Origin: Alphaproteobacteria bacterium
GTDB lineage: Bacteria > Pseudomonadota > Alphaproteobacteria > TMED109
Length of the DNA: 64,000 nucleotides
Direction: 5' to 3'
Assembly: GCA_965116745.1 (NCBI GenBank)
Contig: OZ220701.1
Coordinates: 436,744 to 500,743, forward strand
The notes below the pieces were generated by a model that was given only the letters and a program-made list of their open reading frames with translations, made no database searches and was not told the DNA's origin. The stretch's first letter is position 1; every line of letters starts with the position of its first letter. A program made the translations under genes and the position numbers. Positions 20,882 to 61,505 of this stretch are shown in pieces.

Positions 20882-20963
20882 TCGCAGCATGTGAAGGGTG
20901 GATTCTGGATGTTCCTCGTCCCCGGGGGTGTCGACTAACCGCGGTACATGGGCGATCCAGAGC

Positions 20964-21065
20964 TCACAACTCCGCGTGCTCGTGGCAAGCCCGGAACTGG
21001 TCGTCGATCGAGGCGGCGCTCTGCAGATCGGAGGAATAGCGGGCGTAGAGTGCGGCACGGATCAT
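20964..21065 (-). pseudogene. large serine recombinase, first ~33 codons only
   Basis: MIRAALYARYSSDLQSAASIDDQFRACHEHAEL-stop is the catalytic-serine N-terminus (ALYARYSSD.Q) of resolvase/large serine recombinase family proteins. Confidence 0.6.
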
Positions 21066-41990: not shown

Positions 41991-42243
41991 AGCCAACAAT
42001 TTGTGGGTCTTACTGCCTGAGGCGCCCCCGCGCCCACCATGCGCTACGCTCCCACGCTAGGAGAGTCGGCGACTGCGGGTTCCCCCGTAACGGCAACAGT
42101 ATCTCTCCGGCGGTCGGGCCGCGGTCCCCGTCGTTTTGAATGGAATCAATCCGAATGAGAACAGCAAGGTGAATACCCGAGCAAGCGGCGCGATACGGCC
42201 CCGCAAGATGCTGCAGCTCCCGACATCAAAGGATCCGAAGTCC

Positions 42244-44912: not shown

Positions 44913-45033
44913 AGGGCTGACGCGCTGGACCTGCCGCAGACGCGTGAACGCCATTGCCGGGAGTCGCAAGGCCAGGTCTGTTCGACGGCGTGCCAGCCTG
45001 GCGCGCACCCACGGCCGCCCCCGCGCGCAGCTG

Positions 45034-45159
45034 CGGCCGGCTGATCGGGACCACGTCTGGCCGTACGACTTCGTGCACTGCGGCACAGACGACGGCCGGG
45101 CGTTCCGGACCCCGAACATCCTGGACGAGTACACCTGGAACTGGATGCTGATCGGCGTT
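45034..45159 (+). pseudogene. IS3-family transposase (OrfB integrase core) fragment
   Basis: RPADRDHVWPYDFVHCGTDDGRAFRTPNILDEYTWNWMLIGV resembles the IS3 OrfB block (PN.VW..D.T......G......ILD..SR). Confidence 0.55.
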
Positions 45160-45217: not shown

Positions 45218-47284
45218 TCAGGCGGCCAGTTCGTGCCGCCGCTCGACGACGCGGAAATTCAGCTTCTCGGTGGGTTTCATCGACGGGAGCGGGTTGAACC
45301 GCAGCGCGTCGACGTACTTCGACGGCGACACCTCAAGGGTGACGTGACGAGCGATCATCAGCACGTTGACCGCAAGTTGCAGGTCCATCCACCGCGAACC
45401 CAGGCATTTGTGCGTGCCGAGTCCGTAGGGCGCGTAGCCCGGGTCGCGATGCTCGTCGCGTGGCGGCAGATAGCGGTCGATATCGAACGAGAACGGGTCG
45501 GGGAAGACTTCGTCCAGGTAATGCGTGGCGGTCTGGGCGATATGGACCCGCGAGCCCACCGGGATTTCGTGGCCCCCGATCACGAATGGGTTCATCACGT
45601 CCCGCATCGACATCGGCACGATCGGGTACATCCTGAGGCATTCCATCAGGAAGCGGTGCGTGACCCCCATCGAGGACATGCTGAAGTCGTCCCCGTCGGG
45701 ATCGCCGTGTTCGAACAGGGCATCGGCTTCCTCCCGGATTCTCTCGTGCAGCGCGGGCCGCGACGCCAGCACGTAAACCGCGAAGCTCAGCGCGTCGCCG
45801 AGATAGACGCTCGCGACCAACGACGCCGCCAGGGCGAAACGCAGGTTCGATTCCGGCACGAGCTGCGGATCGCTGGCGTGCAAGCTCAGCCAGTCATCTG
45901 CAAGGTCGCGCGAGCACCCGGCACGCTGGGCCGGCGTATGGACGCTCCGGATGCGTTCGATCAACGTGTCCACGGCCTTCGCCCGGCGCTTCATTCCCGG
46001 GGTATTGAGCATGAACTTGGGCAAGGCATGCATGATGTGAACGATGAGCGCCCGTTCCTTGAACTCGATCAGATCGTCAAGGATGTCCTGGGAGTCCACG
46101 CTGAGGAAGAGCGACGAGAGCTGCGCGTTGACCATTCGCCGGCACCTGCGTACGGGAAAAGTCTCGCCCACCGTCCAGTTCGCCATGAATTCGCGGGCGA
46201 GCCGGTACACCTGGTCCAGTTGACTCGACAGCCGGGCCCGTGAAAACGCCGGTCCCATGGCCTTGCGCAGCCGGAAATGATCGCCGCCGTCCAGCGAAGG
46301 CAATACGCCATGCGCGCCGTAGACTTTCTCGAAATCCGCGAAATAGCCCCAAGCCGTCAGGTGCATTCGCCCGTGCCGGTCCACCCACTCGTTGGTCTCC
46401 CGCCCGCCCAGGACGATCATGGGTTTGACGAACGGTGCACGGATCTCGAACACCGGGCCGTACTCTTTCGTCAGTTCGCCGAAGAGCGCGGGGACGTTGC
46501 CGCTGCGGACGTGGGGGCTGAGCAGCAACCGGCGTAGGGCGACGACGGGTCTTTTCTTGGTGAGCGTGGACCGCCGCAGCATCAGGCTGACGATGTTGTG
46601 TTCGACCGCGGCGGCGATCGAGCGGCCGATCAGGTCCATCCGGCAGATGAAATCAATGCGCTCCTGGGTCTCTTCGTCGATCTGGAACATGAAGCGAAGG
46701 ACGTCGCACGTGTTGACCAGGCAGATGATGATGATTTCCCGGGGTTCGGGAATCGCATCGGTGAAGAGCGCCTTGACGACCCGCGTCTTGATGAACTGCC
46801 CAACCGTGCCCGTTTGGGAGACGCCGAACAGGTCCTCGCGCCAGCGGGTCTCCGCCAGCGTCCAGAATTCGCCGTCGTGGTGTTCCAGGATCTCCGCTTC
46901 GACCAGGCGGTCCAGGGTCTGATCGATCATCGTGTCCGCGTTCAGGGCGAACTTCTCGATCCAGTACTGGGCGTTCCGGCGCTCCGGTTCCTCGGCGATT
47001 TCCTGCAGGATGGGATCGAGGACCGAATCGCCGGTTTCCGTTCGGTCCAGCAGGAACAGCGAGTCCAGGTCGGTGTCGATCCGCGAGAGCAGCGAGAGTT
47101 CCGCCAGCGCCGCGCCCACTACCGCACAATTGAGGGCCCAGCCGGGAACCTGGTGGAAATAGCCGGTCTGCTCGTTGAGGAGCATCAAGACGAGCTCCTC
47201 CGGCAGGGTCAGTGTTCGGATCGTCACGCCGCTATCGGGCATTGGCCCCGGCCCCACTTCCTCCTCTCGCTGTATCGACGCCAA
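45218..47284 (-). CDS. GOLPH3/GPP34-domain - cytochrome P450 fusion protein
   Basis: The N-terminal ~210 aa parallels human GOLPH3. LTLPEELVLMLLNEQTGY matches LTLMEEVLLLGLKDREGY; TGDSVLDPILQEIAEEPERRNAQYWIEKFA matches [30 protein letters not shown]. The C-terminal ~450 aa is a P450, with ExxR in ECLRMYP and heme loop YAPYGLGTHKCLGSRW. Confidence 0.85.
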   Translation of the reverse strand: MASIQREEEVGPGPMPDSGVTIRTLTLPEELVLMLLNEQTGYFHQVPGWALNCAVVGAALAELSLLSRIDTDLDSLFLLDRTETGDSVLDPILQEIAEEPERRNAQYWIEKFALNADTMIDQTLDRLVEAEILEHHDGEFWTLAETRWREDLFGVSQTGTVGQFIKTRVVKALFTDAIPEPREIIIICLVNTCDVLRFMFQIDEETQERIDFICRMDLIGRSIAAAVEHNIVSLMLRRSTLTKKRPVVALRRLLLSPHVRSGNVPALFGELTKEYGPVFEIRAPFVKPMIVLGGRETNEWVDRHGRMHLTAWGYFADFEKVYGAHGVLPSLDGGDHFRLRKAMGPAFSRARLSSQLDQVYRLAREFMANWTVGETFPVRRCRRMVNAQLSSLFLSVDSQDILDDLIEFKERALIVHIMHALPKFMLNTPGMKRRAKAVDTLIERIRSVHTPAQRAGCSRDLADDWLSLHASDPQLVPESNLRFALAASLVASVYLGDALSFAVYVLASRPALHERIREEADALFEHGDPDGDDFSMSSMGVTHRFLMECLRMYPIVPMSMRDVMNPFVIGGHEIPVGSRVHIAQTATHYLDEVFPDPFSFDIDRYLPPRDEHRDPGYAPYGLGTHKCLGSRWMDLQLAVNVLMIARHVTLEVSPSKYVDALRFNPLPSMKPTEKLNFRVVERRHELAA

Positions 47285-47421
47285 GGTTACCCCGATTTCC
47301 GCGCCTCGTCACGCCATTTCGCGTTCAGCTGGTTCGTCCACTTCCGTCGCAACTGCGCCGTTCCTAGTATGGCTATGCCCGTACCGACGACTGCGCGGCC
47401 CTCGCCGACCTTCATCAACAA

Positions 47422-48459
47422 GTGGAGCGCGCCATGTCGATGAAGCTGCCCAGAGACCTTCGGGACGCCTACCGGGGCTGGGACCCGGCGGCCGGCGTGG
47501 CGCGATTCAGCGGCTGGCTCGACCGAAGCAGACGGGCCGACCGGGATGGCTACGACCATACCGCGACAGTGAACGACTACTACGATTTGTGCAGCGAATT
47601 CATGCAGTTCGGATGGAACGAATCCCTGCACTTCGCTCCGTTGACGCGCGGGGAGACGCTGGAGGAAGCCATTGTCCGGCATCAACGCAGGATGATCGGA
47701 TCGCTGGAGCTGCGAGAGGGGATGAAGGTCGTGGACGTCGGCTGCGGTGTAGGCGGCCCCATGCGGCGGGTCGCCCGCGAGTCAAACGCCACGGTCGTCG
47801 GCATCAACAACAACCAACGGCAGTTGGAAATGGCGAGGCGGAGGAACGTCGAGGCGGGCCTCGATCACAGGGCGGAGTATGTCAAGTGCAACTTCATGGA
47901 CATGCACGCCATTGCAGCCCACTCGTTTGACGCGGGTTACGCGATCGAGTCGACGTGTCACGCGCCGGACAAGGCGCGCGCGTTCGCGGAGATCTTTCGC
48001 GTGCTCAAGCCGGGCGCGCCGTTCTGGGGCCAGGAAATGTGCATGACGGAAAGCTTCGACCCGGACAACGCCCGTCACCGCGCGATCAAGGATGAACTCA
48101 TGCGGGGAGTCGCCCTCCCGAATATCGCCACGTTCCGGGAAGTGAACGACGCGCTCGAGGCCGCAGGCTTCCACATTGTCGAGGCGGAGGACAGGGACAT
48201 CGGGGATAGCGGGGGCACGCCCTGGTATCGGCCCATGGAAGGACAGGGCGGGATATTGCGCAATGCGTTTCGCAGGACGCCATGGGGCCGCGCGGCGATG
48301 ATTGCCGGCCTTCGGCTGGCTGAGGCGTGCCGTGCCTTCCCGAAGGGTTCGACCGCCGTCGTCAGATTGATGGATCGAACAGCCGACGCGTTTGTTGCCG
48401 GCGGCAGGACAGGGATATTCACGCCGCTCTACTGTTTCCTCGCCCGCAAGCCCGGGTGA
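47422..48459 (+). CDS. sterol 24-C-methyltransferase (ERG6/SMT-type class I SAM methyltransferase)
   Basis: It is collinear with yeast ERG6 along its whole length: VNDYYDLCSEFMQFGWNESLHFAP, VVDVGCGVGGPMRRVA, VGINNNQRQL, YAIESTCHAPDKARAFAEIFRVLKPGAPF, PWYRPMEG, and the sterol-MT C-terminal block AFVAGGRTGIFTPLYCFLARKPG. Confidence 0.85.
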   Translation: MERAMSMKLPRDLRDAYRGWDPAAGVARFSGWLDRSRRADRDGYDHTATVNDYYDLCSEFMQFGWNESLHFAPLTRGETLEEAIVRHQRRMIGSLELREGMKVVDVGCGVGGPMRRVARESNATVVGINNNQRQLEMARRRNVEAGLDHRAEYVKCNFMDMHAIAAHSFDAGYAIESTCHAPDKARAFAEIFRVLKPGAPFWGQEMCMTESFDPDNARHRAIKDELMRGVALPNIATFREVNDALEAAGFHIVEAEDRDIGDSGGTPWYRPMEGQGGILRNAFRRTPWGRAAMIAGLRLAEACRAFPKGSTAVVRLMDRTADAFVAGGRTGIFTPLYCFLARKPG

Positions 48460-48828
48460 TCCGGCGGAACTGTCCAGGGCTTCTATCGACTACTTGACAG
48501 GTTGGAGATGTTCCGGGACGCAGGTCTCGAGCCCTTTGTTGAGTGTTGCGCGATTGCCCTCGCCAAGGCCGGGCGCCCCGGCATCTTCACCCTGATGCAG
48601 TTCATCCGCGCGCACAAGGCGGAACAGCGCGGGCCTCACGAATAGGCCAGGCCGGACGGCGCAGGATCGATCGCGAGTGGGGAGCCCGCGAAGGAGGGGT
48701 CGTGCCTGCGATTAGTGCGCGGAGTTCAGCGGAAGGCCGTCCCGGTGCAGTTCTTCCAGCGTCCCTCCCGGGCGTTGGCCACTCGACGGCGAAGCCGACC
48801 GGCGCAGATGCCGTTCTTCGACCGGGTG

Positions 48829-49785
48829 CTATCGCACCCGCTGGAGCGCCGTCCGGGTGAAGTCGCGAGCGTCAAGGTCGGTTCCAAACGCGTAGTCCGA
48901 CCAGTCCAGTATGGTGCTCTTGCCCGTGAGATGGTTGGTCATCGTGATCCTGCTGCTCCGCCAGAAACGATCCAGATATTGTGCGTAGTCTTCCATGACC
49001 ATCGTCTTGACATGCGCTTCCCGACGGTCGAAGAACTGGATCTGCATGGAGCGCAGTTCTTCCTTGTCCATCCATACCAGTTGACGGGAGTACCCGGAAT
49101 CCTCATTCAGCGGGATCCGCTCCAGAACGATGCATTCGAGCTCGCCGCAAGGCTCGTCCCGCAGGTACCGATGCATGAATTTCTCGACTTCCACGGTGCC
49201 GAGGTCCTCGTACGAGAACTCGCTGCCCATGAATGAGCCGGATTGATTCGCGGAGCTGATGCGCTTGACCCGTTTCAGGGCGGGGAGATAGAGCCACTGT
49301 TCGTCTGGCTCACCCTTGTGGACGTGAACGAGAAATGCGGTTCCCTTGACGTCGCGCGGGCGGTCGAACACGAACACGCTGCGGTCGCCGTCGCCCGCGA
49401 CCTCCATCACCTTCAGGCGGATTTCGCGATTGCTCTCCTGTCCCCGCTTGGTGCGCAGGGTCATGATCAGGTTAGACGTGAAGTTGCCGAAACCCTTTTG
49501 ACGTTCACGGGCCTCGGTCGCGATCCGGAGCCCCGCTTCTTCGGCGGTTTCAGCCTGCCCGACCGTAGGCACGGCCGCCCAGGCGAAGATGGCAAGTAGG
49601 ATCCCGAATGACGCCAGGACCGGGCGAGGAAGAGAAACGCGAATGACCGTTGCCTCCTGTCGATCACCGTAACCGCAACAGGAAACGTAGGAACTCGACG
49701 GAGAGGCCCGAGCAGTGAGCGGATCACATCGATTCCCGCACCTGTTGAAGCATGGTAGCACGATTCCTGCCATGCACCTGACCAT
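48829..49785 (-). CDS. LolA-like outer-membrane lipoprotein-sorting-type periplasmic protein
   Basis: DGDRSVFVFDRPRDVKGTAFLVHVHKGEPDEQWLYLPALKRVKRISSANQSGSFMGSEFSYEDL is the hallmark block of the LolA_like family that usually pairs with COG1033 RND genes. The start is uncertain; the signal-like segment begins near 49650. Confidence 0.75.
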   Translation of the reverse strand: MVRCMAGIVLPCFNRCGNRCDPLTARASPSSSYVSCCGYGDRQEATVIRVSLPRPVLASFGILLAIFAWAAVPTVGQAETAEEAGLRIATEARERQKGFGNFTSNLIMTLRTKRGQESNREIRLKVMEVAGDGDRSVFVFDRPRDVKGTAFLVHVHKGEPDEQWLYLPALKRVKRISSANQSGSFMGSEFSYEDLGTVEVEKFMHRYLRDEPCGELECIVLERIPLNEDSGYSRQLVWMDKEELRSMQIQFFDRREAHVKTMVMEDYAQYLDRFWRSSRITMTNHLTGKSTILDWSDYAFGTDLDARDFTRTALQRVR

Positions 49786-49827
49786 CTGCCACGGGACGGT
49801 CTTGTCCGCGGAGAGCAGCTTCCGTGC

Positions 49828-52155
49828 CTATCCGACCGACCGGCTCAGTCGCTCCCTGATCTGCGCGGTCGTTTCCTTCGTCGTGTCAAGCGCCATCAGC
49901 AACGGCGGAAGGAACAGGAAATCCGCCAGCAGGGCGATGATGACCGTGATCCCGACGAGCAGGCCGAGCGCCTGGTTGGTCACCATTCCCGATGCTCCGA
50001 ACACCATGAAGCCCAGCGCGAACACAACCGTCGTCGCGGTCAGCGCCTTGCCGACCGCGCCAAAGGCGGACTGAACGGACTCCGACGGCAACAGCCCGCG
50101 TTTCCTGGCGCCGACATACTTGGTCATGAAGTGGATCGTGTCGTCCACGATGATGCCGAACGCGATGGCGGTGACGACTGACGCCGCGACGCCGACCTCT
50201 CCTACCACGTATCCCCAAAGACCCATCGCCATGGCGGCCGGCAGGAAATTGGGGACTAGGCTGATCAGGCCGAGGCGCACGCTTCTGAAGACGAAGAGCA
50301 GGAGCAGGGACACGATGGCCATTGCCGCGATCGTGCCCCGCAGCATGCCCTCGATGTTCCGTTGAATTGAATGGGCGCCGACCACGGAAACGCCCGTGGC
50401 CTGGGTTTGCAGGTCGGGCGCGTTTTCCCGGAACCAGGCTTGCGTGCGATCGTCGAGGTCAACCTTCTCCCGGGTCGTGAGGCTCTTGAGCACGACCGTC
50501 ACGCGCGTCGAAGACCGTTCCACGTCGATGAGGTTGTTCAGATCGCGGCCGACCGGCAGAGAGAACTCGTAGAGCAGCAGGTACTGCGCAGCAAGGTCGG
50601 AGTCGTCCGGAAGCAGGTAGAAGCCGGGATCGTCGCCATGCAGGTTCTTGTTCAGGCGCTTCATGATGTCGGAGATGGCGAAGACGTGGGCCACCTCCGG
50701 TTGCGCCCGACTCCACTCCGCAAACGCGTCCACCTGCCGGAGATATTCGACATCCGTGATGCCGCCCTCCCGCCCGGAGTTGAGCGAGTACTCGTATGTT
50801 TCTACGCCGGTGAAGTTCTCGCTCACAAAGTCCGTGGATCGCCGGAACTCGTAGCTCTCGTCGAGCAGCTCAAGCCAGTTCTCGTGCAGCTCGATCCGCG
50901 AGATCCCGGCGATGAGCACGACCATCACGGCGGCGACCGACCAAAGCAGGGTCGTGCGGTAGGAAATGACGAACCGCGCCAGGCGATCGAAGATGTCTGC
51001 TTTTCCCGCCGGCGCAGGCCCGCCACGCATCGGCACAACGGTCAGGAAAGCGGGCAGCAGCGTGACCGAAAAGACGAAGGCCGCCATAGCGCCGAACGCC
51101 ACCATGTTGCCCATCACCCGAAACGGCGGCATGTCCGCGAAATTGAGGCTGAGAAAGCCGATTGCGGTTGTCACCGATGTCAGGAGAACCGGCCACACGT
51201 TGACCTGCAGGGAATGAATCGCTGCCTGCGGACGGTCCATGCCTTGGCGCAGGCCCGCCCGCATCCCCTCGATAATGTGCACGGAGTGCGCGACGGTGAC
51301 TGCCATCAAGACGAATAGCGCCGCGCCGCTCTCGCCGAACAACTTCAGCCCGACCCAACCGGTGAAACCCAGCGCGGACAGCATGACCGCGATCAGCATC
51401 ACGAGGATCGCCACCATTCCCCATAGCGAGCGCAACAGAACGATGGCGACGAGCAGCATGGTCCCGAGCGCGGCCGGCGCGAGGACGCCCATGTCATCGT
51501 CAATCGCCTGCTTCATGGCGCGGTTGAGGATGAGTTCGCCGGTCAGATGGTAGTCGATGGTCGGATACCGAGCTCTCTGTTCGGCGGCGGTACCGTGGAG
51601 GAAGTCGGTAACCTCGAATCGTCCCAGCTGTCGGTCCTCGGGAAGCGCGACGCTGACGACCAATCCGGCGATGCGACCATCCCTGGAAATGAAGCGCCCT
51701 GCGACTTCTTCGGTACTGAGCGCAATTTCGCGAATGCGTTCGATATCGCTGTCGCTCAGGGAACTGGCGTCGTCGATCAGGGGGGCGACGATCAGTTCGT
51801 CCTCGAGGCCCTCGCTGTGTGAATAGTTTGTGATCGAATCAACGCGGGTGACGTAGGGCGTTCGCCATAGCTGGTCGGTCAGCTCTTCAATGGCGACGAG
51901 CGCTTCCGGCGAGAAAACCGTACCGCCTTGCGGGGCCACGACCACCAGCGCGGCGTCGGAGAGCGAGTAGGTGGCTTCCAGCTCGTCGAGTGCGACGATG
52001 TGCGGGTCGTCTTGGCTGAAATGATTCCGAACGTCGACGTCAACGACAATGATGTACTGGGCGCCCGCGGCCAGGGCTAGCATTGCAACTAGTGAGAGTG
52101 CGATAGACAGCCATCGGCGCTCAACCGGTAGCGCGATGAAGGAATCCAAATTCAT
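49828..52155 (-). CDS. RND-superfamily lipid exporter (COG1033, MMPL/HpnN-like)
   Basis: 775 aa with two 6-TM bundles and two periplasmic loops. The N-terminal region ...HFSQDDPHIVALDELEATYS... is typical of predicted RND exporters. A LolA-like gene follows immediately on the same strand. Confidence 0.9.
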   Translation of the reverse strand: MNLDSFIALPVERRWLSIALSLVAMLALAAGAQYIIVVDVDVRNHFSQDDPHIVALDELEATYSLSDAALVVVAPQGGTVFSPEALVAIEELTDQLWRTPYVTRVDSITNYSHSEGLEDELIVAPLIDDASSLSDSDIERIREIALSTEEVAGRFISRDGRIAGLVVSVALPEDRQLGRFEVTDFLHGTAAEQRARYPTIDYHLTGELILNRAMKQAIDDDMGVLAPAALGTMLLVAIVLLRSLWGMVAILVMLIAVMLSALGFTGWVGLKLFGESGAALFVLMAVTVAHSVHIIEGMRAGLRQGMDRPQAAIHSLQVNVWPVLLTSVTTAIGFLSLNFADMPPFRVMGNMVAFGAMAAFVFSVTLLPAFLTVVPMRGGPAPAGKADIFDRLARFVISYRTTLLWSVAAVMVVLIAGISRIELHENWLELLDESYEFRRSTDFVSENFTGVETYEYSLNSGREGGITDVEYLRQVDAFAEWSRAQPEVAHVFAISDIMKRLNKNLHGDDPGFYLLPDDSDLAAQYLLLYEFSLPVGRDLNNLIDVERSSTRVTVVLKSLTTREKVDLDDRTQAWFRENAPDLQTQATGVSVVGAHSIQRNIEGMLRGTIAAMAIVSLLLLFVFRSVRLGLISLVPNFLPAAMAMGLWGYVVGEVGVAASVVTAIAFGIIVDDTIHFMTKYVGARKRGLLPSESVQSAFGAVGKALTATTVVFALGFMVFGASGMVTNQALGLLVGITVIIALLADFLFLPPLLMALDTTKETTAQIRERLSRSVG

Positions 52156-52794
52156 GTCAACGTGCCGAATCGGTATCAGGCTTCATGTATAGCACTTCCA
52201 GTCCACCCGGCCACGGGAGGAGCCGGTACGCCTGCCCATCCAGGCTGCTGTTCGTATCGCGGTTGCGGCAACCACCACCGGTATCGTCAAGTTAACAGTA
52301 TCGCGTTTGCCCCATTGCCTTCAATCAATACTGAAACGGTTGATAGGTACGGATGGTTGCCGGTGCGCCAGTGCCCGCTGCATCGCGCTGACGCAACCGT
52401 GTCCGGCAGAGAACGCTCCACGCGATCACGCCTGGCGCGCGCGGTTCAACTGCGGCAACTTCACGTCGAGACTTCGGAAAGTCCCCTCATCAGGCAGAGG
52501 GGCAGGCTATTGAATGTCGTCGACTTCAGATGGCTTGCAGGTCTCTTTTGTACGGTCATTCGTCTTGTTGCCGTACCACGACAGTGCTATTTGTCGGGTG
52601 ATGCGATACAGCAAGAACTGTGACGTCGGCTCGGCTACTGGCCTGCCGTCGACGTGCGACTTCCTCACCATCATTTGACATGGCGAGGACGAAACCTGGA
52701 TGCTTCAGGACCACGCACCGTCGCTCCCTTCGGTCTTGCGCAGTTCGCTGAGATAAAGGCGTCGCCATACCTGGGAACGAGAAATTGGCGAAAC

Positions 52795-53841
52795 GTGAAG
52801 AGCAGTTGCAGCACGGGTGACGTGACGGGCGCTCTGTTTCCGTTTCCCGAGGGCTGGTACTTCGTCATCAGCCGACGCTCTTTGGTAAAGAGCAAACTGA
52901 TTCAACGGCAGTGGCTGGGCCAGGACATCATCGCCTGGTGTGACAGTGAAGGCACTGTCTGCGTGGCCGAGTCGGTGTGCCCGCATATGGGTTCATCTCT
53001 GGGCCCGGCCGCAGGCGGGCAAGTGCGCGACGACTGTCTCGTCTGCCCCTTTCACGGGTTCACGTACGATATTTCCGGCAGTTGCGTGGCGACTCCCTTT
53101 GCTCCGCCGCCGAAATCCGTGAAGCTTCAGGTGCTCGATGTACGGGAAATTCATGGCCTGATCTTCGCCTGGTGGAGCGCAGCCGGACGACCGCCGCAAT
53201 GGACCTTGCCGGACGTGCCGTCCGCGGGAGACGACTGGTGCGCCCCGGAAGTCCGGAGCGTCCGATTTCGCGGCCATGTCCAGGAGTTGGCAGAGAACTC
53301 CGTGGATCTGGCCCACCTGCAGTACGTACATGGTTACCGAGACGTAAATCCGGTCGGCTCGACCACGGTGGATGGCGCCCATCTGCTTGCCCGGTTCGAG
53401 TTCCGCCGGCGCCGGCGTATCGCCGGCATTGTCGAGTCCGTCTACCAGGTTTCTGCTGCCGCCCACGTCCATGGGCTCGGTTACTCTTTCGTCGATATCC
53501 AGGAGCACTCGATCGGCATGGACCTGCGGCTCTGGGTCCTTGCCACCCCGGTCGACGGCACGTTGGTGGAGTTGGTCCTGGTCAGCCAGATCCGGAACAT
53601 GCGCAACCCCAAACGACCGATCGTGGGCCTGGGGTTCCTGCCCGCGAAGCTGCGCACCAGCGTCATGAACAAGTTCGTGGTATCCGCGCAAATGCGGGAT
53701 GTCCGCCAGGATGTCGTCATCTGGCAACGACGGCGGCATCGTCCGCATCCGCGATTGAGTCGTTCTGACGGCGACATCGGCAGATATCGTCGCTATTGCA
53801 AACAGTTCTATCCGCGCGTCGACGAAGGTGATGACAGGTAG
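52795..53841 (+). CDS. Rieske [2Fe-2S] non-heme iron oxygenase (sterol-desaturase/SdmA/KshA-like class)
   Basis: Rieske motif CPHMGSSL...(17)...CPFHGF, preceded by FPEGWYFV. The C-terminal catalytic region includes NSVDLAHLQYVHG. Start GTG 52795 is proposed; the 395-aa ORF start at 52654 adds a non-homologous leader. Confidence 0.8.
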   Translation: MKSSCSTGDVTGALFPFPEGWYFVISRRSLVKSKLIQRQWLGQDIIAWCDSEGTVCVAESVCPHMGSSLGPAAGGQVRDDCLVCPFHGFTYDISGSCVATPFAPPPKSVKLQVLDVREIHGLIFAWWSAAGRPPQWTLPDVPSAGDDWCAPEVRSVRFRGHVQELAENSVDLAHLQYVHGYRDVNPVGSTTVDGAHLLARFEFRRRRRIAGIVESVYQVSAAAHVHGLGYSFVDIQEHSIGMDLRLWVLATPVDGTLVELVLVSQIRNMRNPKRPIVGLGFLPAKLRTSVMNKFVVSAQMRDVRQDVVIWQRRRHRPHPRLSRSDGDIGRYRRYCKQFYPRVDEGDDR

Positions 53842-53975
53842 CCGCTGTGCGGGCCTGGAAGCCCGCTTTTGCGGCCCGGTCGCGACCGGTGACCCGGGGC
53901 AACCGAACCGCTAGCGGAAGCTGACGATCCCCAACCGGCAGTGCAGCGCCAGCGGGCCATGACCCTTCCCGTGCG

Positions 53976-55334
53976 CTACGCCTTCCTGAACCGTGACCCG
54001 TGCAGGATGCTCCCATAGTGGTTGAACCACCGCCTGGCCTCGGGGTCGTCAAAGGGATAGTCGGCGCCAAGCTGCCTCGCCGCGGCGAGGCCGGTGATGA
54101 GGCATGTCTCCTGGCTGTTGATCAGCGTGTGAGCGCCGCAGTGCCACGTCCTTCGCTTGCCCTGAATGAAGCGGAACAGGCCCACGAGCATCGTGACTTG
54201 ACGCAGGTCATGAACGATATGCTGGAACCGGCGCTTCGAGATGATTTTCAGCTCGTCGATGGGACTGGTCGCGTTGTAGGTCACCAGGCAGGGCTTGTCC
54301 GAACGCTTGGCCCAGGGCTGCTGGTTGTGGATGATGTGCGTGATCTCGTAATTGTCAGGTTTGTCGCCGTACTGCCGGATGTAGTTGGTCCGAGTGGCCA
54401 GGCACTTCATGTCGTTGTCGGGCAGGACAGAGGAGTCCCAGTGAACGACGGCTTGACGGTGGATATCGTTGTCGTATCGGATTGACGAAAGGATGAAGCG
54501 TTCGAGCCGGGAAGGCTGGTCCAGGATTTTCAGGGTCTGGTCTGCCGGGCATGCAAACACAACCTCGTCGAACGTTTCCCGGGCCCCGGACGCATCCTCA
54601 ATCACGACGCCGGATGCCTGTCGGTACACCTTCGAGACCGGCCGGTTGAGGTAGATTTTGTCCCGGAAGCCAGCCGACAGGTTCTCGTAGATTCGTCGAG
54701 TCCCCTGATCCCACGTCCACATGGGGGTGCCCGTCTCGATATTGAAGAATTCGAGATACCTCGAGAAGAGCGCCGCTGGCAGATCGAACACGTTCGAGGC
54801 CAGTACGAAATTGATGAACATCGGCTTCAGGATCTTGTACCGGAAGGCCTCGGAAAATCCCCCCAGATTCAAGACCGTCCGCATGCTGACGTAATTGAAC
54901 GGGTTGAGGGCGTTCAGGTACTTGGACCGGGCGCGGCTGAGCCAGCCGATCCAGTGCAAACGTCTCAGGAGGCGCTGAAACTTCCTGATTTCGGATTGAA
55001 GATCGTCCCTGATCTCGGACTCGAAATCATGGGCGTAGGCTTGGCCACCGTACTCGACGCTGTAGGTGAACCTGGTATCAATGAGCTTGATATCGAACGC
55101 TTCCATCAGCAACAGGACGTGGTGATACACTGATGGAATAAGGGCCGTGACCGATATGTCGAAGGGAATTGAACTGCCGTCATTCTGGGGCATGTCGACG
55201 GTGACCGCGTTCCCGCCGAGCTGCTCCTGGGCCTCGAACAGGCGGAAATCAAAACGGTCCGGGTGATGATGCAGCGCCCAGGCGGCGCCCAGTCCCGAGA
55301 CGCCTCCACCCACAACAGCAATTCGTTGCGGCAT
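53976..55334 (-). CDS. FAD-dependent oxidoreductase (amine-oxidase fold, COG2907-like)
   Basis: Dinucleotide fold MPQRIAVVGGGVSGLGAAWAL...FEAQEQLGGNA and the C-terminal ...HCGAHTLINSQETCLITGLAAARQLG. GC is visibly lower than in the flanks. Confidence 0.8.
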   Translation of the reverse strand: MPQRIAVVGGGVSGLGAAWALHHHPDRFDFRLFEAQEQLGGNAVTVDMPQNDGSSIPFDISVTALIPSVYHHVLLLMEAFDIKLIDTRFTYSVEYGGQAYAHDFESEIRDDLQSEIRKFQRLLRRLHWIGWLSRARSKYLNALNPFNYVSMRTVLNLGGFSEAFRYKILKPMFINFVLASNVFDLPAALFSRYLEFFNIETGTPMWTWDQGTRRIYENLSAGFRDKIYLNRPVSKVYRQASGVVIEDASGARETFDEVVFACPADQTLKILDQPSRLERFILSSIRYDNDIHRQAVVHWDSSVLPDNDMKCLATRTNYIRQYGDKPDNYEITHIIHNQQPWAKRSDKPCLVTYNATSPIDELKIISKRRFQHIVHDLRQVTMLVGLFRFIQGKRRTWHCGAHTLINSQETCLITGLAAARQLGADYPFDDPEARRWFNHYGSILHGSRFRKA

Positions 55335-55757
55335 TGCGGTTTTCCTCGCAAATCTCGGAACTTGGAAACTTACCACCGTGCCCGATCGCCCACTAGGCAG
55401 CCATGCTGCTTGGCCGCGCCATGGCAGGAAGAAACGAACCGCCGGTCAGGCAGCGACAGCGATGTCGGACCCGAGGCCGCCGTCTGGCCAAATCACTGCC
55501 GTGCCGCGGCGTGCCCTTCGTAGTGCGTTTGCGATTAACGTGCGTCGAGTGCCTGATCTCGGGGGACGTCTGATCGATGGGATCGAGATCTGGTGAAGGC
55601 GGTGCAGCACCCGCGGTTGTGTCCCTGCATTGCGGGCGGCGTGGCGCCCGGTTCTGTTCATGGCGGTAGCTCCCGTGGCCAGCCAAACGGGGGGTCCAAT
55701 CAGAATGTTGTTCGCGGCCTGCCGAAGCGTCATCATCCTTTCCGAGTGAGAACCGGC

Positions 55758-56537
55758 ATGCATTTTCTCGTGTTTTCGAAGCGGTTCGGGCTGGCCGTTC
55801 TCGCGCTGCTTTCGTGCGTTTCGGCCCAGGCCGCCGATTGGAGCAACACCGAATTTCATCTCCAGGTCGGCCGTCTGGATGCCCCCTCTTTCGCTGGCGG
55901 CGGCAGAGCCCTACACGTGATCCATACGCTGCAGCACGCAAGCGGATGGCAATATGGCGACAACTTCTTCTTCGTTGACGTCGTGGATTCGCGGCAGCCC
56001 GGCGCCCCCGACATCGACTTCTACAGCGAAGCCTACGCGAACTTGAGCCTTGGCAAGATTACCGGCGGTCGCGTCGGCACCGGCCTGGTTTCGGATATCG
56101 GGCTGATCGGCGGCTTCAACTGGGCCGTGGACGCGAAGGTCCGAAAATATGCAGCCGGCGTACGGCTGGCGCTCGGCCTCGAGGGTTTTGCGTTCGCGAA
56201 CCTCGACCTGATGGCCCTGATCGACGACAGCGAGGGGTTCGTGTCCGGCGGGGCGCCCGCGGAGGACGACACTATCCTCATCGACTTCAACTTCGCACGG
56301 CCGTTCAGGATCGGCACAGCGGACTTCAGCCTCGAAGGCCATATCGAATATGTCGGCGGGCGGACCAACGAACTCGGCGGCACGGTGGGATCGTGGATCT
56401 TGGCGCAGCCCCAGCTGCAGTGGCACTTGACTGATCGGCTCGCGCTCGGGATCGAGTACCAGTTGTGGATCAACAAGTTGGGCGACCGGGACACCGACGA
56501 GAACGCCGTGCAGGCTTTGATCGTGTGGGAATTCTAG
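55758..56537 (+). CDS. Tsx/OmpK-like outer-membrane channel
   Basis: Signal peptide MHFLVFSKRFGLAVLALLSCVSAQA. ADWSNTEFHLQVG... and the terminal ...NAVQALIVWEF match the Tsx/OmpK family pattern. Confidence 0.7.
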   Translation: MHFLVFSKRFGLAVLALLSCVSAQAADWSNTEFHLQVGRLDAPSFAGGGRALHVIHTLQHASGWQYGDNFFFVDVVDSRQPGAPDIDFYSEAYANLSLGKITGGRVGTGLVSDIGLIGGFNWAVDAKVRKYAAGVRLALGLEGFAFANLDLMALIDDSEGFVSGGAPAEDDTILIDFNFARPFRIGTADFSLEGHIEYVGGRTNELGGTVGSWILAQPQLQWHLTDRLALGIEYQLWINKLGDRDTDENAVQALIVWEF

Positions 56538-57134
56538 GCCCTGCGTCGGTCGGGCTCACGCGTGCGGCCATGACAATCCGCCAGGCGACGCCACCGACCG
56601 AATGGTTGCGCCCGCCGCCCCGGAGGAATGGTCCTGCGCGAAGAGTGCGTAGCGTGGGTTGGTCGAGCGTGAGGTCGCCGCGCCGAACGGAGCGCCGATC
56701 CATAGGTTTAAGTTCAACCGGTACTGGATCCGGGTGCCGGGACGCGGCACCCTGTGCGTGGAGGTGCCGTACTGTGCGAACGTCCGGCCCGGCAATGGGT
56801 TCCCCGTGCGGCGGCATCGGCCACCTGGACGACGCGTGGTCCGGGGATCGCGAAGTGCGGGCTGCTGTCGCAGCTGGCACCGAGCCTGGCCCGCATCGGC
56901 GGAGTATCCGGATCGGCAGGGGTGCCGAAGCGCCGGTCACGAGAGAGACGAAGCGCGGTCGTGCGCTGCCCGGGATTCCGGTGCCTGGATCCAATCCGAA
57001 CCGACGATGATGGTCGACGCGAACGCGATCCGTGGCGCGCTGCCCGAACCTGCAGCTGATGTGGGTGCGGCCGTTCTCGCGGGTGGCGTACCATCCCCGC
57101 GCAGACAGGCAGGGCAAGCGGGCGGAGTCCTGCC

Positions 57135-58130
57135 ATGCGGGTGATCACGGGAGCGAGCGGCCATATCGGCGGTGTGCTCGCCCGAGTGCTGGCCGACCGG
57201 GGTGATCCCCGTCAGGTCCGCGCGATCTACCGCGATCGGAAAGGAACGGCAGCCGATCTCGCCATTGAGTGGGTCGGTGGCGACATCCTCGACCAGGAAT
57301 CGCTGGTTGCCGCGTTCTCGGGAGCGGAAACCGTCTACCACCTGGCCGCCTTGGTGTCGATTGACCCCGGCCGGGCCAAGGATGTCCACACGACGAACGT
57401 GTCGGGCACGCGCAACGTCGTTGAGGCAGCCCTGCGCTGCGGCGTGCGGCGGCTGGTGCACGTTTCCTCGATTCACGCCTTCAACCAGCACCCGCTCGAC
57501 GAAGTGCTCGACGAGCGCCGTGGTCCCGCCGACGGTCCGTGGCACGCCGCCTACGACCTGTCGAAAGCGGCAGGCGAACGGGAGATTCGGCGCGGCATTG
57601 ATCGCGGCCTCGATGCCGTGATCCTCAACCCGACCAGCGTCATCGGCCCCTTCGACGGCGTGCCCTCGTACATGGGACACGTGTTCCTCGACCTGTACCG
57701 GAGACGCATTCCCGCGCAGGTTGCGGGCGGCTTCGACTGGGTGGACGTGCGCGACGTGGTCGACGCCACGGTGGCCGCCGAGACGAAGGCGAGGTGCGGC
57801 GAGAACTACCTCCTGTCAGGCGGCTGGGATACCGTGCGCAACCTGGCGATCCTGTCCGAGCAGGCGACCGGGGTGCCGGTGTCGCGTTTCGTGGTCCCCT
57901 TGTTCGTGGCCCGGCTCTGGGCGCCCTTTCAGGTCATGTTGGACCGTAGTCAGGGGCGCCGGCCGCTCTATACGCCGTCGGCGGTACGCGTGATGAGCAA
58001 CGGCAACCGCCGGATATCCAACGCCAAGGCGCGGGCGGAACTCGGGTTCGAGCCGCGTCCCTTGGCAGATTCCGTACGGGATGCCTACCGTTGGTTCGAC
58101 GAGCAGGGCATGCTCGGCGAAGCTGGTTGA
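57135..58130 (+). CDS. extended short-chain dehydrogenase/reductase (3-beta-HSD/HpnA/dihydroflavonol reductase-like)
   Basis: MRVITGASGHIGGVLARVL (Rossmann fold), YDLSKAAGE (YxxxK), 331 aa. Confidence 0.85.
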   Translation: MRVITGASGHIGGVLARVLADRGDPRQVRAIYRDRKGTAADLAIEWVGGDILDQESLVAAFSGAETVYHLAALVSIDPGRAKDVHTTNVSGTRNVVEAALRCGVRRLVHVSSIHAFNQHPLDEVLDERRGPADGPWHAAYDLSKAAGEREIRRGIDRGLDAVILNPTSVIGPFDGVPSYMGHVFLDLYRRRIPAQVAGGFDWVDVRDVVDATVAAETKARCGENYLLSGGWDTVRNLAILSEQATGVPVSRFVVPLFVARLWAPFQVMLDRSQGRRPLYTPSAVRVMSNGNRRISNAKARAELGFEPRPLADSVRDAYRWFDEQGMLGEAG

Positions 58131-58131
58131 G

Positions 58132-58893
58132 ATGGCCGAGGAACAACTGCACGGCGTGCTGGTATGGGCGGTCATCGCCGCGGCCGGCCTGACGTTCCTG
58201 TACCTGCTCCGCCTGACCGCGCCCTACGGCCGCCACTACGCCGGCACGGGCTGGGGGCCCCACATCTCCAGCCGGCTCGGCTGGGTCATCATGGAACTGC
58301 CGGCGGTCGTCATCTTTCTCGCGGTCTATCTCGCCGGAAAGTCGGCGTCCCATCTCGTGCCGCTGTTCTTCCTGGCCATGTGGCAGGTCCACTATCTGAA
58401 CCGGACGTTCGTGTTTCCGTTCCGGATCCGGGCAAGCGGACGGAAGACGCCGCTGCTGATCGTGGCGTCAGGCTTGTTCTTCAATGCGATCAACGCCTAC
58501 ATCAATGCCCGGTTCATTTCGGAATTCGGCGAGTACGCGGTCGAATGGCTCGCCGACCCGCGTTTCCTGATCGGCGTCGGAGTTTTCCTGGCGGGGATGG
58601 CGCTCAACCTGCACGCCGACCACGTCCTCATTCGCCTGCGTGGACCGGGCGAGACCGGCTACGTGATCCCGCAGGGAGGCGGGTATCGCTTCGTGTCGTG
58701 TCCCAACTACCTGGGTGAACTCCTCGAATGGGCCGGCTGGGCACTCGCCACGTGGTCGACGTGCGGTCTCGCCTTTTTCCTCTTTACCGCCGCCAATCTC
58801 GTGCCCAGGGCGCGCAGCAATCACCAATGGTACCGGGAGACCTTCAGCGATTACCCGCCTCGCCGGAAGGCGCTGATACCGGGCGTCTTCTGA
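58132..58893 (+). CDS. 3-oxo-5-alpha-steroid 4-dehydrogenase (steroid 5-alpha-reductase, SRD5A/DET2 family)
   Basis: The C-terminus GGGYRFVSCPNYLGELLEWAGWALATWSTCGLAFFLFTAANLVPRARSNHQWYRETFSDYPPRRKALIPGVF is collinear with human SRD5A1 (GGLFEYVTAANYFGEIMEWCGYALASWS...RAKEHHEWYLRKFEEYPKFRKIIIPFLF). The start ATG is 2 nt after the SDR stop. Confidence 0.85.
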   Translation: MAEEQLHGVLVWAVIAAAGLTFLYLLRLTAPYGRHYAGTGWGPHISSRLGWVIMELPAVVIFLAVYLAGKSASHLVPLFFLAMWQVHYLNRTFVFPFRIRASGRKTPLLIVASGLFFNAINAYINARFISEFGEYAVEWLADPRFLIGVGVFLAGMALNLHADHVLIRLRGPGETGYVIPQGGGYRFVSCPNYLGELLEWAGWALATWSTCGLAFFLFTAANLVPRARSNHQWYRETFSDYPPRRKALIPGVF

Positions 58894-58941: not shown

Positions 58942-59784
58942 TCAGCGGTTCGTCACCTGCAGCCACGTCCAGAGCAGGCCCATCATGACGGGCTGGTGCA
59001 GCAGGTAGTAGACGAGGCTGTTGCGGCCGAGGAAGCGGACGAACCGCCCGACGTGGCCTTCCATCCGGTAGACCGCCAGCCGGCGCAGCGCCCCCGCCCC
59101 GTGCGCCCATCTGGCGGCGCCGATACCAAAGAGCACCGCTGCCAGCCAGGGAAACACCGGGAAGTAGTCGCCCGAATTCGGGCGGGCGACCGACAGCCCG
59201 GTCCACTGCCAGATCCGCGCGTCCAGCAACTCGGTCTGCACCGTTTCGTTGATGGCGAGAATGGCCACCGCCGCGGCCACCGCCAGCCACCACGGGCCCC
59301 GCACGAACGCCAGGCCGGCGATGCCGGCAAACGCGATCAGGTGCAGGATGCCGAAAAAGATCAGCGACTGTGGCGTGGCGATCCAGGTGGCAGCGGTGAT
59401 GGCCAGCGCCCCCAGGACGATCAGCGCCAGCCGCCGGGCCCAGCGCGTCCAGTGGAAGGCGTGCGCGTGCGCGAGATAGAGGCTCGCGCCCGTCGCGAAC
59501 AGGAAGCTGATGGCCACGGCCTTGGCCAGGGCCGCCCAGTGGAGCTGCGTCGTGTAGCCGGGCTCCTGCAGCCCAAAGAACATCAGATCGTAGGCAAAAT
59601 GGAATACGGTCATCCCGATGAGCGCGACCCCCCGCAGCAGGTCCAGCAGCGGGATCCGGGGGACGCTCTCGGTTCCGGCTCGTCGATGGTCCGCGCCGGA
59701 ACGTCCGGCCGGGGCCTGGGCGCCCTGCCGCCGGGATCTCCGCGGTTTCGCTCTCGCTGCCCGTGGTCCGCGCCTTCGAGCCAT
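58942..59784 (-). CDS. DUF1624/HGSNAT-like membrane acyltransferase-family protein
   Basis: RIPLLDLLRGVALIGMTVFHFAYDL... and multiple TM segments are typical of DUF1624. Confidence 0.7.
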   Translation of the reverse strand: MARRRGPRAARAKPRRSRRQGAQAPAGRSGADHRRAGTESVPRIPLLDLLRGVALIGMTVFHFAYDLMFFGLQEPGYTTQLHWAALAKAVAISFLFATGASLYLAHAHAFHWTRWARRLALIVLGALAITAATWIATPQSLIFFGILHLIAFAGIAGLAFVRGPWWLAVAAAVAILAINETVQTELLDARIWQWTGLSVARPNSGDYFPVFPWLAAVLFGIGAARWAHGAGALRRLAVYRMEGHVGRFVRFLGRNSLVYYLLHQPVMMGLLWTWLQVTNR

Positions 59785-61094: not shown

Positions 61095-61505
61095 TCCTGC
61101 GAAGGGCCGGGGGCGGGGGTACGCAGCTCCGGTTTGCGCGTGGCGAGTAGTCCGCTCTCGCGGTTCACCACGGGGCTGCCCGGTGTTGCCGTCGTCTTGC
61201 TGCCGGCGCGCTCCCGGCCAGCTGGCGCCGACCGGCGCGTCGGCCCCGGCAGCCGAACGTACCGGCGGGTTCGGGCGGTTCTCCCCACAGCGTGGCGGTC
61301 TCCCGATCGACCGCCACTCCGGCGTCCCGGCGACGGCAGCGAGGCCGGGGTCAACGGCAAGCGGGCAGGTGACGGATCGTTCGTCCGGAAATCGACGACA
61401 ATTCTCGACCTCTAGCCAATCGCCCCTAGATATATGCGCACAGGACATGCATGTCGTGCCAGGAGGAAACCATCTGGAACAGAACCAAGTGCAAGGAACC
61501 CAGCG

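Follow-up and report, generated by a model that had tools for sequence, protein, structure and literature searches.

Two candidate sterol modules, one built around a GPP34-P450 fusion and a sterol methyltransferase, in DNA of a probable sponge symbiont

Clusters of sterol genes described by Brown et al. from sponge-associated bacteria comprise an epoxidase-cyclase, ERG11, ERG24, a sterol methyltransferase (SMT) and sdmAB, and 8 of 10 SMTs from sponge metagenomes were found to methylate desmosterol in vitro (PMC10070321); the words P450, Rieske and transport do not occur in that paper. Clusters of the ERG24-CYP51-LSS kind are present in 115 of 537 Ircinia metagenome-assembled genomes (MAGs) belonging to 10 phyla, with enrichment of SMT and evidence of horizontal transfer (PMC9531527). 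A separate study reported 656 proteins in which a GPP34 domain is fused to a cytochrome P450 (the GPP34_L family), found only in sponge symbionts of many phyla and expressed (PMC11706023). Here we analyze a stretch of 64,000 nucleotides of alphaproteobacterial DNA (contig OZ220701.1, positions 436,744 to 500,743; hereafter the window), in which a gene for such a fusion stands next to an SMT gene, two oxidoreductase genes and a pump. To our knowledge, Methylococcus is the only bacterium in which the transport of sterols has been elucidated. Positions of genes here link three lines of work, on bacterial SMTs, which make it harder to take 24-alkyl steranes as the earliest traces of animals, on GPP34-P450, a gene signature of sponge symbiosis that is among the clearest and whose function is only proposed, and on the transport of sterols in bacteria. 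The parts are known singly (bacterial SMTs, GPP34-P450 proteins, sterol clusters in sponge MAGs), we found no paper that joins them as one cassette, and the cassette with its tie to GPP34_L and to efflux appears to be undescribed in the literature searched.

We propose, with a probability of roughly 60%, that the window carries two sterol modules side by side, of which module A would tailor and export sterols and module B would make 5-alpha-stanols. Module A (about 45.2-55.4 kb) would be a horizontally spread cassette of the SMT, the GPP34-P450 fusion, a Rieske oxygenase, a flavoenzyme and an RND transporter with a LolA-like partner, while module B (57.1-58.9 kb, perhaps with an aldo/keto reductase (AKR) and a LysR regulator) would be a translationally coupled pair of a short-chain dehydrogenase/reductase (SDR) and a steroid 5-alpha-reductase (SRD5A). 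The proposal builds on family assignments, co-location across phyla, operon-like spacings and, in relatives, immediate proximity to genes of de novo sterol synthesis. A first-pass annotation, made from the sequence alone, had listed nine relevant genes in about 14 kb, and all nine are present at or near the places where it had put them.

The SMT gene and its recurring neighbors

The gene order was established by a codon-position screen combined with profile searches (Pfam, NCBIfam) of the open reading frames (ORFs) of the window. The gene at 47434-48459 on the plus strand (ORF from 47422) encodes a 341-aa member of the SMT/ERG6-type sterol C-24 methyltransferase family; its start is probably at 47434, because the homologs are 341-343 aa long. 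Residues 282-344 match PF08498 (Sterol_MT_C) with 63 bits against a cut-off of 21.7, and the class I S-adenosylmethionine (SAM)-dependent methyltransferase core is recognizable both by profile (Methyltransf_11, 68 bits) and by the SAM loop VDVGCGVGGP. The canonical SMT motifs are YEYGWG in Region I and IEATCHAP; the window protein has IESTCHAP, and its Region I reads FMQFGWNESLHF. A placement outside the sterol clades, which the first-pass annotation had itself named as fatal to its ERG6-type assignment, was not what the Sterol_MT_C match showed. The copy of the PDB searched holds no SMT structure, and the best matches there are other methyltransferases. Relatives of the protein number in the hundreds at 60-99% identity, those at 60-85% coming from MAGs of many phyla. 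We infer that the window SMT probably methylates delta-24 sterols at C-24.

Divergently from the SMT gene runs the gene of the fusion protein (45218-47284, minus strand, likely start ATG 47245). In this single ORF an N-terminal GPP34 domain (GOLPH3/Vps74-like; residues 27-228, 105 bits) precedes a P450 domain (residues 259-654, 108 bits), which is the architecture of GPP34_L and bears out the fusion predicted in the first reading. The P450 domain possesses the heme-cysteine motif YGLGTHKCLG and the ExxR motif in the form ECLR. Its best solved relatives are CYP51 enzymes, with 83 bits only, and neither CYP125 nor CYP142 is among the 60 best of them. Orthology to CYP51 was considered and rejected, given this low score and the separate stand-alone P450 that two relatives (L085 and L020) have beside the fusion; this 484-aa protein occupies the CYP51 position of the published clusters. 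The fusion begins without a recognizable signal peptide. The pocket for phosphatidylinositol 4-phosphate (PI4P) in GOLPH3/Vps74, which we take to be formed by Trp88, Arg97, Lys178 and Arg181, is traced only in part: the MAFFT alignment retains the tryptophan equivalent to Vps74 Trp88 within 'PGW' and has Val at the Arg97 position, which is variable in the family, the HMMER alignment disagrees and puts the Trp88 and Arg97 positions in gaps, and the Lys178/Arg181 pair could not be aligned. Pairwise matches to Vps74/GOLPH3 are weak (E 0.009-0.3). The window fusion almost certainly belongs to the GPP34_L family. GPP34 domains are also known in rare fusions to a Rieske protein (two genomes) and to an ABC ATPase (five genomes) (PMC11706023); these partner classes, oxygenases and a transporter, are also present in the cassette, which fits a shared role at membrane lipids. 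A Thermodesulfobacteriota MAG has a tandem pair of full-length GPP34-P450 genes (L002, 3804-8089, minus strand) with 59-61% identity to that of the window; their neighbors are two SMT paralogs and genes of an RND transporter, a LolA-like protein and a DUF1302-like barrel.

An exact look-up of the window SMT found no record of it, and to analyze the neighborhoods we used close homologs, i.e. the 80 best SMT loci (designated here by L numbers, as are further relatives) in a collection with one genome per species, almost all of them MAGs; neighbors were recorded within 10 kb, and cyclases and stand-alone P450s were counted at a query coverage of at least 50%. These loci span at least five phyla and include members of Rhodospirillales, Alpha- and Gammaproteobacteria, Arenicellales, Pseudomonadales, Thermodesulfobacteriota, Dehalococcoidia/Chloroflexota, Dadabacteria, Acidimicrobiia, Rhodothermales and 'Candidatus Poriferihabitaceae'. 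A full-length GPP34-P450 gene (query residues ~39-686 aligned) is near the SMT in 57 of the 80 loci and a Rieske gene in 42, while the flavoenzyme is found in 15 (65-76% identity, including Dehalococcoidia), the window-type RND transporter in 7 and the LolA-like protein in 4; an RND transporter of any of three non-orthologous types lies within 10 kb of the SMT in 56. The signature fusion is found beside the SMT in most genomes with this SMT clade, and two further oxidoreductases and a pump also occur there. The same set of enzymes recurs in varied gene orders and with three unrelated pumps, which argues for a selected functional coupling, as inherited synteny would not yield such a pattern. 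None of the 80 loci has an epoxidase-cyclase near the SMT, with partial cyclase matches at the edges of two (L036, L010), and the stand-alone P450 of L085 has a counterpart in only one, L020 (64% identity), where it is accompanied by a second SMT, an RND transporter, GPP34-P450 and SMT.

Identities of 60-76% between SMTs of different phyla point to horizontal spread, and so do the remains of mobile elements. A remnant of an IS3-family transposase (about 45 codons, about 45025-45159, plus strand), which the earlier reading had placed at the left edge of the cluster, indeed shows 62-67% identity to annotated IS3 transposases in tblastn and lies between the stop of an M16 peptidase gene (44912) and the stop of the GPP34-P450 gene (45218). 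In the Rhodospirillales MAG L133 both this stretch and the GPP34-P450 gene are missing and the M16 gene is followed directly by the SMT gene; hence the fusion gene and the IS3 remnant of the window constitute an indel, the edge of which the remnant marks. An IS1595 transposase is inserted between the SMT and LolA-like genes in L081 (11187-11609) and an IS605 OrfB/TnpB between the RND and Rieske genes in L133 (4956-6233). The cassette is under active rearrangement. The two loci with these insertions are also the closest full-length relatives of the window (L081 is a contig of 99% identity). Many of the loci have bin names of the kind used in studies of sponge microbiomes, SB0661_bin_34 and APA_bin_87 are cited as sponge symbionts (PMC11706023), and one relative of the reductase of module B is encoded in the Aplysina aerophoba metagenome that Brown et al. 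used; the source of the window is most probably a sponge-associated Rhodospirillales bacterium. A myxobacterial origin, which the high G+C content had at first suggested, was rejected, as the close relatives are all Rhodospirillales or other symbiont MAGs.

The pump of module A is an MMPL/HAE3-type RND inner-membrane transporter of 775 aa (49828-52155, minus strand; Pfam MMPL, 127 bits). Only 42 nt downstream of it, on the same strand and thus with operon-like spacing, lies the gene of a LolA_like/TP_0789-like periplasmic protein (48829-49785, minus strand; Pfam LolA_like, 200 bits), which, if started at the likely GTG 49647, has a signal peptide ending in ...VGQA before ETAEE. The proposed exporter and its same-strand LolA-like partner were accordingly recovered, and the HpnN identity suggested for the exporter was not: it scores 113 bits against the NCBIfam cut-off of 752 (and 53.5 against 1100 with another HpnN model) and reaches 21.9 of 1400 bits for BstA, 161 of 352 bits for the HAE3 subfamily and, in Pfam, 20.8 bits for Sterol-sensing, just under the cut-off of 22.3. 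Orthologs of the window RND transporter, at 64-79% identity, adjoin the SMT in six loci (L007, L008, L020, L025, L050, L060), and the RND/LolA-like pair is kept together in L002, L007, L025, L081 and L133. This first type of pump (HAE3/MMPL-775) is combined with the LolA-like protein and with a DUF1302-like outer-membrane protein, the latter accompanying the pair in about nine loci and absent from the window. Clustering of the ORFs of the loci revealed different pumps in other lineages. The second type, an MMPL protein of 825 aa with no more than 21% identity to the window pump, occurs in 19 loci of Dehalococcoidia/Chloroflexota (e.g. L076, 7499-9976, plus strand) and passes the Pfam cut-offs for Sterol-sensing (51 bits) and for the Patched sterol-sensing domain (29.7 bits). 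The third, of Gammaproteobacteria and Rhodothermales, is built on AcrB, which occurs in 32 loci, with a membrane-fusion protein in 26 and an outer-membrane factor in 17.

The Rieske non-heme-iron oxygenase of the KshA/Neverland type (52654-53841, plus strand, likely start GTG 52822, 339 aa) possesses the motifs CPH...CPFH and ENSVDLAHLQYVH, fits the Fe(II) pattern E-x3-D-x2-H-x4-H and has a Rieske domain (58 bits) as well as a full-length KshA_C domain (87.5 bits); the best match in the PDB is KshA itself (98 bits). The first-pass annotation was therefore right about the Rieske oxygenase, and its mention of SdmA was not borne out (39.9 bits against an NCBIfam cut-off of 600). KshA shares about 30% identity with Neverland, a cholesterol 7-desaturase (PMC7609953), hence a KshA-like match does not imply ring opening, and the choice between hydroxylase and desaturase cannot be read from the sequence. 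The FAD-dependent oxidoreductase of the amine-oxidase superfamily (53976-55376, minus strand, likely start ATG 55334, 452 aa; Amino_oxidase, 64 bits) is as had been annotated, and its gene is a low-GC one. Its matches in the PDB are LkcE (110 bits) and a 'putative aminooxidase' from P. acnes (2B9W, 45 bits), which we take to be a fatty-acid double-bond isomerase, and it has weak matches to the HpnE and protoporphyrinogen oxidase models of NCBIfam. In Myxococcota, the reduction at C-24 is carried out by a homolog of geranylgeranyl reductase (PMC12004948), i.e. to a flavoprotein family other than that of the window; the case shows that bacteria have recruited non-eukaryotic flavoenzymes for side-chain steps.

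The coupled SDR-SRD5A pair and the rest of the window

Module B begins with an extended SDR of the SdmB/HpnA/3-beta-HSD type (57135-58130, plus strand, 331 aa; Epimerase 109 bits, 3Beta_HSD 72 bits) that has the motifs GASGHIGG and YDLSK. The extended type noted for it in the first reading was confirmed; it resembles SdmB and HpnA about equally and stays below both equivalog cut-offs, with 211 bits against 600 for SdmB and 201 against 368 for HpnA. The SRD5A1/2-type steroid 5-alpha-reductase follows (58132-58893, plus strand, 253 aa), its start placed at ATG 58132 because homologs have 253 aa. The two genes nearly touch, as had been noticed, with one base in between (TGAGATG, in which TGA ends at 58130). 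The reductase shows strong similarity to the bacterial PbSRD5A (7C83, E 4e-81, 276 bits) and to human SRD5A2 (7BW1, E 6e-45, 157 bits), Steroid_dh (177 bits) covers profile positions 2-150 of 150, and the TECR-type enoyl-CoA reductase art-1 (E 5e-9) and DUF1295 (21.7 bits) are matched far less well. The glutamate of ELPA and the tyrosine of HYL in the alignment presumably form the catalytic pair. By these sequence comparisons the window reductase is a true SRD5A1/2-type protein, as first annotated.

The SDR gene lies directly upstream of the SRD5A gene in ten further loci (L085, L088, L092, L098, L100, L103, L115, L119, L125, L137), and the pair, with stop and start overlapping or nearly touching, can be followed down to about 37-46% identity in environmental contigs (L092, L098, L100, L103, L115, L119, L125) and in L137; SDR-SRD5A is an old two-gene unit. 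In the 4.7-Mb circular genome L085 the genes of GPP34-P450, the SDR and SRD5A are consecutive on one strand, and in L084/L085 the next genes encode an SMT, a squalene-epoxidase/cyclase fusion, the 484-aa P450 and ERG4_ERG24. Of all single observations, this arrangement in L085 speaks most strongly for sterols as the substrates of GPP34-P450, the SDR and SRD5A. ERG2_Sigma1R is the family of sterol C-8 isomerase and the sigma-1 receptor; a 207-aa member (642-1265, plus strand, 201 bits), absent from the window, is encoded in a relative of roughly 95% identity from the lineage of the window (L082/L083), where its gene shortly precedes those of the Tsx-like protein, the SDR and SRD5A. Sterol genes are thus neighbors of the pair in two lineages, that of the window and that of L085. 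The union of module B with the core is confined to the lineage of the window, in which L133 shows the same order as the window: SMT, LolA-like, RND, Rieske, flavoenzyme, barrel, SDR, SRD5A, HGSNAT, AKR and LysR.

The genes to the right of the pair were identified by Pfam as first annotated: a membrane acyltransferase-like protein of the HGSNAT_cat (DUF1624) family (58942-59784, minus strand, 215 bits), an AKR that is a candidate 3-ketosteroid reductase (60111-61094, plus strand; Aldo_ket_red, 116 bits) and a LysR-family regulator (61434-62459, plus strand; HTH_1, LysR_substrate). All three are kept near SRD5A in L082, L083 and L133, and HGSNAT_cat only there; the LysR protein is a possible regulator of the SDR-SRD5A/AKR module.

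To the left of the pair is the gene of a Tsx-like outer-membrane beta-barrel (55758-56537, plus strand, 259 aa), which adjoins SDR-SRD5A only in the window lineage. With the start at 55758 the protein has a signal peptide ending in ...SAQA before ADW, and its C-terminus is ...WEF. It has no Pfam match of its own, and a search of the PDB with a profile of its family gave 0 matches; what stands of the Tsx/OmpK-like annotation is that 13 of 36 homologs match Channel_Tsx (best E 2e-7) and that the AlphaFold (AF2) model, with 12 strands and a pLDDT of 73, resembles E. coli Tsx best (1TLW, TM-score 0.56, E 3e-5, 9% identity). The family is widespread, with 60-87% identity across many genomes, and in a 5.5-Mb genome a 76% identical homolog (L134, 10001-10792) follows an M1 aminopeptidase gene with no sterol genes nearby. 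The channel is generic and its membership in the cassette weak, so the dedicated trio of RND, LolA-like protein and outer-membrane channel envisaged in the first-pass annotation reduces to the RND and LolA-like proteins.

Several ORFs between these genes were rejected. The ORF at 52162-52623 (153 aa) has no Pfam or NCBIfam match and its position is uncalled in L081 and L133; the segment is the divergent intergenic region of the RND and Rieske genes. The plus-strand ORFs that follow the Tsx-like gene, like a minus-strand ORF at 56470-57117, are Arg/Pro-rich and lack a family match; a 184-aa ORF of L133 matches just 40 residues and a 214-aa protein of L134 is unmatched in the window. The G+C content of the window is about 65%; the regions described earlier as less GC-rich are real, with 0.575 at 52-53 kb and 0.584 at 54-55 kb versus about 0.65 around them. 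No tRNA genes were found in the scan, Rfam gave zero matches, promoter and terminator patterns did not exceed the expectation from shuffled sequences, and the repeat search returned only short, chance-like matches and no island-bounding repeats.

Upstream of the IS3 remnant are two M16 peptidase genes (42136-44912, plus strand, by profile search), and elsewhere the window encodes a histidine kinase, an ABC amino-acid transporter, a flotillin, a TonB receptor, an MFS/HlyD pair and hydantoinases. Bacterial flotillins organize membrane microdomains tied to isoprenoid lipids; that of the window, a flotillin/SPFH protein (13361-14956, minus strand; Flot 98 bits, Band_7 56 bits) adjoining a branched-chain amino-acid ABC transporter, may be relevant in a genome with sterol-tailoring genes. 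An 802-aa ORF (6976-9384, minus strand) in a LIV-type transporter operon is an unusual fusion of an ABC-transporter ATPase (113 bits) to a full amidase (287 bits). Two ORFs with good coding signal have no Pfam match (683 aa, 18041-20092, plus strand; 276 aa, 20228-21058, minus strand). Genes of defense or mobile type are scattered at 4383-4829, 26691-28031, 36822-37271 and 40488-41504 (an Mrr restriction endonuclease, an AAA_14/DUF4143 ATPase, a PIN toxin and an NTP_transf_8 nucleotidyltransferase), which agrees with the reported enrichment of defense systems in sponge symbionts.

Proposed mechanism and alternative explanations

In the proposed mechanism, sterols in the cytoplasmic membrane would come either from a cyclase encoded elsewhere in the symbiont's genome or from the host; the claim that the window has no squalene epoxidase or cyclase held among the genes scanned across the 64 kb, as it did for CYP51. 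The SMT would alkylate delta-24 sterols at C-24, the P450 and the Rieske oxygenase would oxidize or desaturate them, and the flavoenzyme would adjust a double bond by reduction, isomerization or desaturation. The GPP34 domain may replace the N-terminal membrane anchor of eukaryotic P450s and hold the P450 on the lipid surface that bears the substrate. The RND transporter and its periplasmic carrier would then remove the product from the inner membrane and deliver it to the outer membrane or the exterior. In module B, delta-5-3-beta-hydroxysterols would be converted to the delta-4-3-ketone and further to 5-alpha-stanols, with the SDR or the AKR restoring the 3-hydroxyl; SDR and SRD5A are thus a proposed two-gene bacterial route to 5-alpha-stanols. 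A more far-reaching version, in which the symbionts take up sponge sterols, alkylate and oxidize their side chain or nucleus and pump them back, so that the cassette would be a symbiotic device for remodeling host sterols, is tentative, and we consider it doubtful rather than probable; were it true, GPP34_L would act as an enzyme on sterols and not as an effector at the phagosome. A part of the unusual sterol repertoire of demosponges, with C-24-alkylated and stanol skeletons that serve as biomarkers of animals, would in that case be a bacterial product. The main proposal bears on which sterols the symbionts make or remodel, on their export to the host and on the role of GPP34_L.

Several observations weigh against the proposal of two sterol modules. 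All enzyme activities of the cassette are predictions from sequence, and the specific reactions of the P450, the Rieske oxygenase and the flavoenzyme are guesses. Region I of the window SMT reads FMQFGWN, not YEYGWG, and the SMTs assayed by Brown et al., published as gene identifiers, are unmatched to the SMT clade of the window. The cluster contains no redox partner (ferredoxin or KshB-like reductase) for the P450 or the Rieske oxygenase, and no gene of the ferredoxin-reductase type was found among the window genes scanned. RND-family pumps are common, and the direction of transport and the cargo are inferred. The 80 loci are non-independent samples. Finally, the idea that the whole set is one conserved unit stands for the core and the RND pump, which recur across phyla, and fails for module B and the Tsx-like channel, as none of the 80 loci has an SDR, SRD5A, outer-membrane protein, HGSNAT, AKR or LysR gene less than 10 kb away from the SMT; in L135 and L136 homologs of SRD5A stand alone among housekeeping genes.

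Each of the rival explanations accounts for a part of these data, and none covers both the recurrence of SMT, P450, Rieske and pump genes and the links to ERG2, ERG24 and cyclase genes. It is unlikely that the fusion serves evasion of the host, being delivered into sponge cells where it would bind phagosomal PI4P and block maturation, with neighbors that are unrelated or only loosely related to this task. The strong GPP34 profile match, the tryptophan retained in the MAFFT alignment and the reported exclusiveness of the expressed fusion to sponge symbionts would all suit such an effector; the lack of a visible signal peptide, the Val at the Arg97 position in the same alignment and the weak similarity to Vps74/GOLPH3 would not, and the heme and the reductase chain of a P450 would presumably be hard to supply outside the bacterium. 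The gene, moreover, keeps company with the SMT in 57 loci and with Rieske, flavoenzyme and RND genes, and in L085 it stands beside a de novo sterol cluster; the report on the family mentions neither sterols nor methyltransferases (PMC11706023). Evasion and sterol tailoring are compatible readings, as altered sterols could themselves affect phagocytosis. We also think it improbable that the substrates are isoprenoids other than sterols (squalene, hopanoids, carotenoid-like compounds or sponge terpenoids), with the SMT-like enzyme methylating a terminal isopropylidene and an HpnN-like pump exporting the product. SMT-like enzymes of Botryococcus do methylate squalene and botryococcene, the SDR scores for HpnA almost as for SdmB, the RND transporter and the flavoenzyme resemble HpnN and, weakly, HpnE and protoporphyrinogen oxidase, and a cyclase is missing both from the window and from the surroundings of the SMT. 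The scores for hopanoid families are nevertheless all far under the cut-offs, SRD5A is close to reducers of delta-4-3-ketosteroids, ERG2-like, ERG24 and epoxidase-cyclase genes stand beside parts of the modules in relatives, and most of the sponge-metagenome SMTs assayed accept sterols in vitro.

Partial catabolism or detoxification of host steroids, started by the SDR, the P450, a flavin dehydrogenase and a KshA-like 9-alpha-hydroxylase, with the pump conferring tolerance, has little likelihood in our view. The enzyme set does parallel the upper part of the cholesterol catabolic pathway, the best solved relative of the Rieske protein is the ring-opening hydroxylase KshA with its full-length KshA_C domain, and a 3-hydroxyacyl-CoA dehydrogenase gene begins at 63376; steroid catabolism by bacteria of natural, engineered and host environments is the subject of a metagenome survey (PMC5790920). 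A methyltransferase and a 5-alpha-reductase are enzymes of tailoring and not of degradation, KshB, KstD-type (FAD_binding_2), Hsa meta-cleavage, Mce4 and side-chain beta-oxidation genes are missing among the window genes scanned, CYP51 is nearest to the P450, with no CYP125 or CYP142 among its 60 best solved relatives, and, as KshA and Neverland are related at about 30% identity, the KshA match need not mean ring opening. That genes without joint action are neighbors here by chance, in a region that is mobile and rearranged, is very improbable, and for the core this explanation is already largely refuted by its recurrence across phyla in varied orders and with pumps of three unrelated types. 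It draws on the insertion-sequence remnants and insertions, on the separation of the SDR, SRD5A, outer-membrane protein, AKR and LysR genes from the SMT outside the window lineage, and on the unrelated contexts in which the Tsx-like gene and SRD5A are found elsewhere.

Comparison with known systems

The proposed two-module arrangement resembles several described systems without coinciding with any of them. The Methylococcus BstABC proteins and HpnN also associate an RND transporter and a periplasmic lipid carrier with genes that modify triterpenoids, and they presumably follow the same logic of transfer from the inner to the outer membrane; the window differs in that its periplasmic partner is of the LolA_like family and in that its RND transporter stays below the BstA and HpnN cut-offs. 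BstB, by contrast, has a periplasmic-binding-protein fold. As in C-4 demethylation by SdmA/SdmB, a Rieske oxygenase and an extended SDR occur in a sterol context, but in the window 3.3 kb and other genes separate the two, and the coupling partner of the SDR is SRD5A. KshA and Neverland/DAF-36 share with the window Rieske oxygenase the Rieske and Fe(II) motifs and the full KshA_C domain, while KshA has a reductase partner, KshB, which is lacking near the window gene. SRD5A1/2 and PbSRD5A (7C83, 7BW1) are similar to the window reductase over the full length, which differs from them in being coupled to an SdmB/HpnA-like SDR and in adjoining a sterol cassette.

The closest parallels come from the sponge symbionts themselves. 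The published sterol clusters (PMC10070321, PMC9531527) likewise contain an SMT with Sterol_MT_C, belong to uncultured demosponge symbionts of many phyla and bear signs of horizontal transfer. They consist of epoxidase-cyclase, CYP51, ERG24, SMT and sdmA/sdmB, of which the cassette shares only the SMT; in place of the others it has GPP34-P450, a Rieske oxygenase other than SdmA, a flavoenzyme and a pump. GPP34_L proteins (Ferreira et al. 2025, PMC11706023) have the same architecture and ecological distribution as the window fusion, and whereas PI4P binding and evasion of phagocytosis were proposed for them, the gene of the window is tied by its position to sterol enzymes and pumps. In L085, parts of the modules lie directly beside a sterol cluster of the published type.

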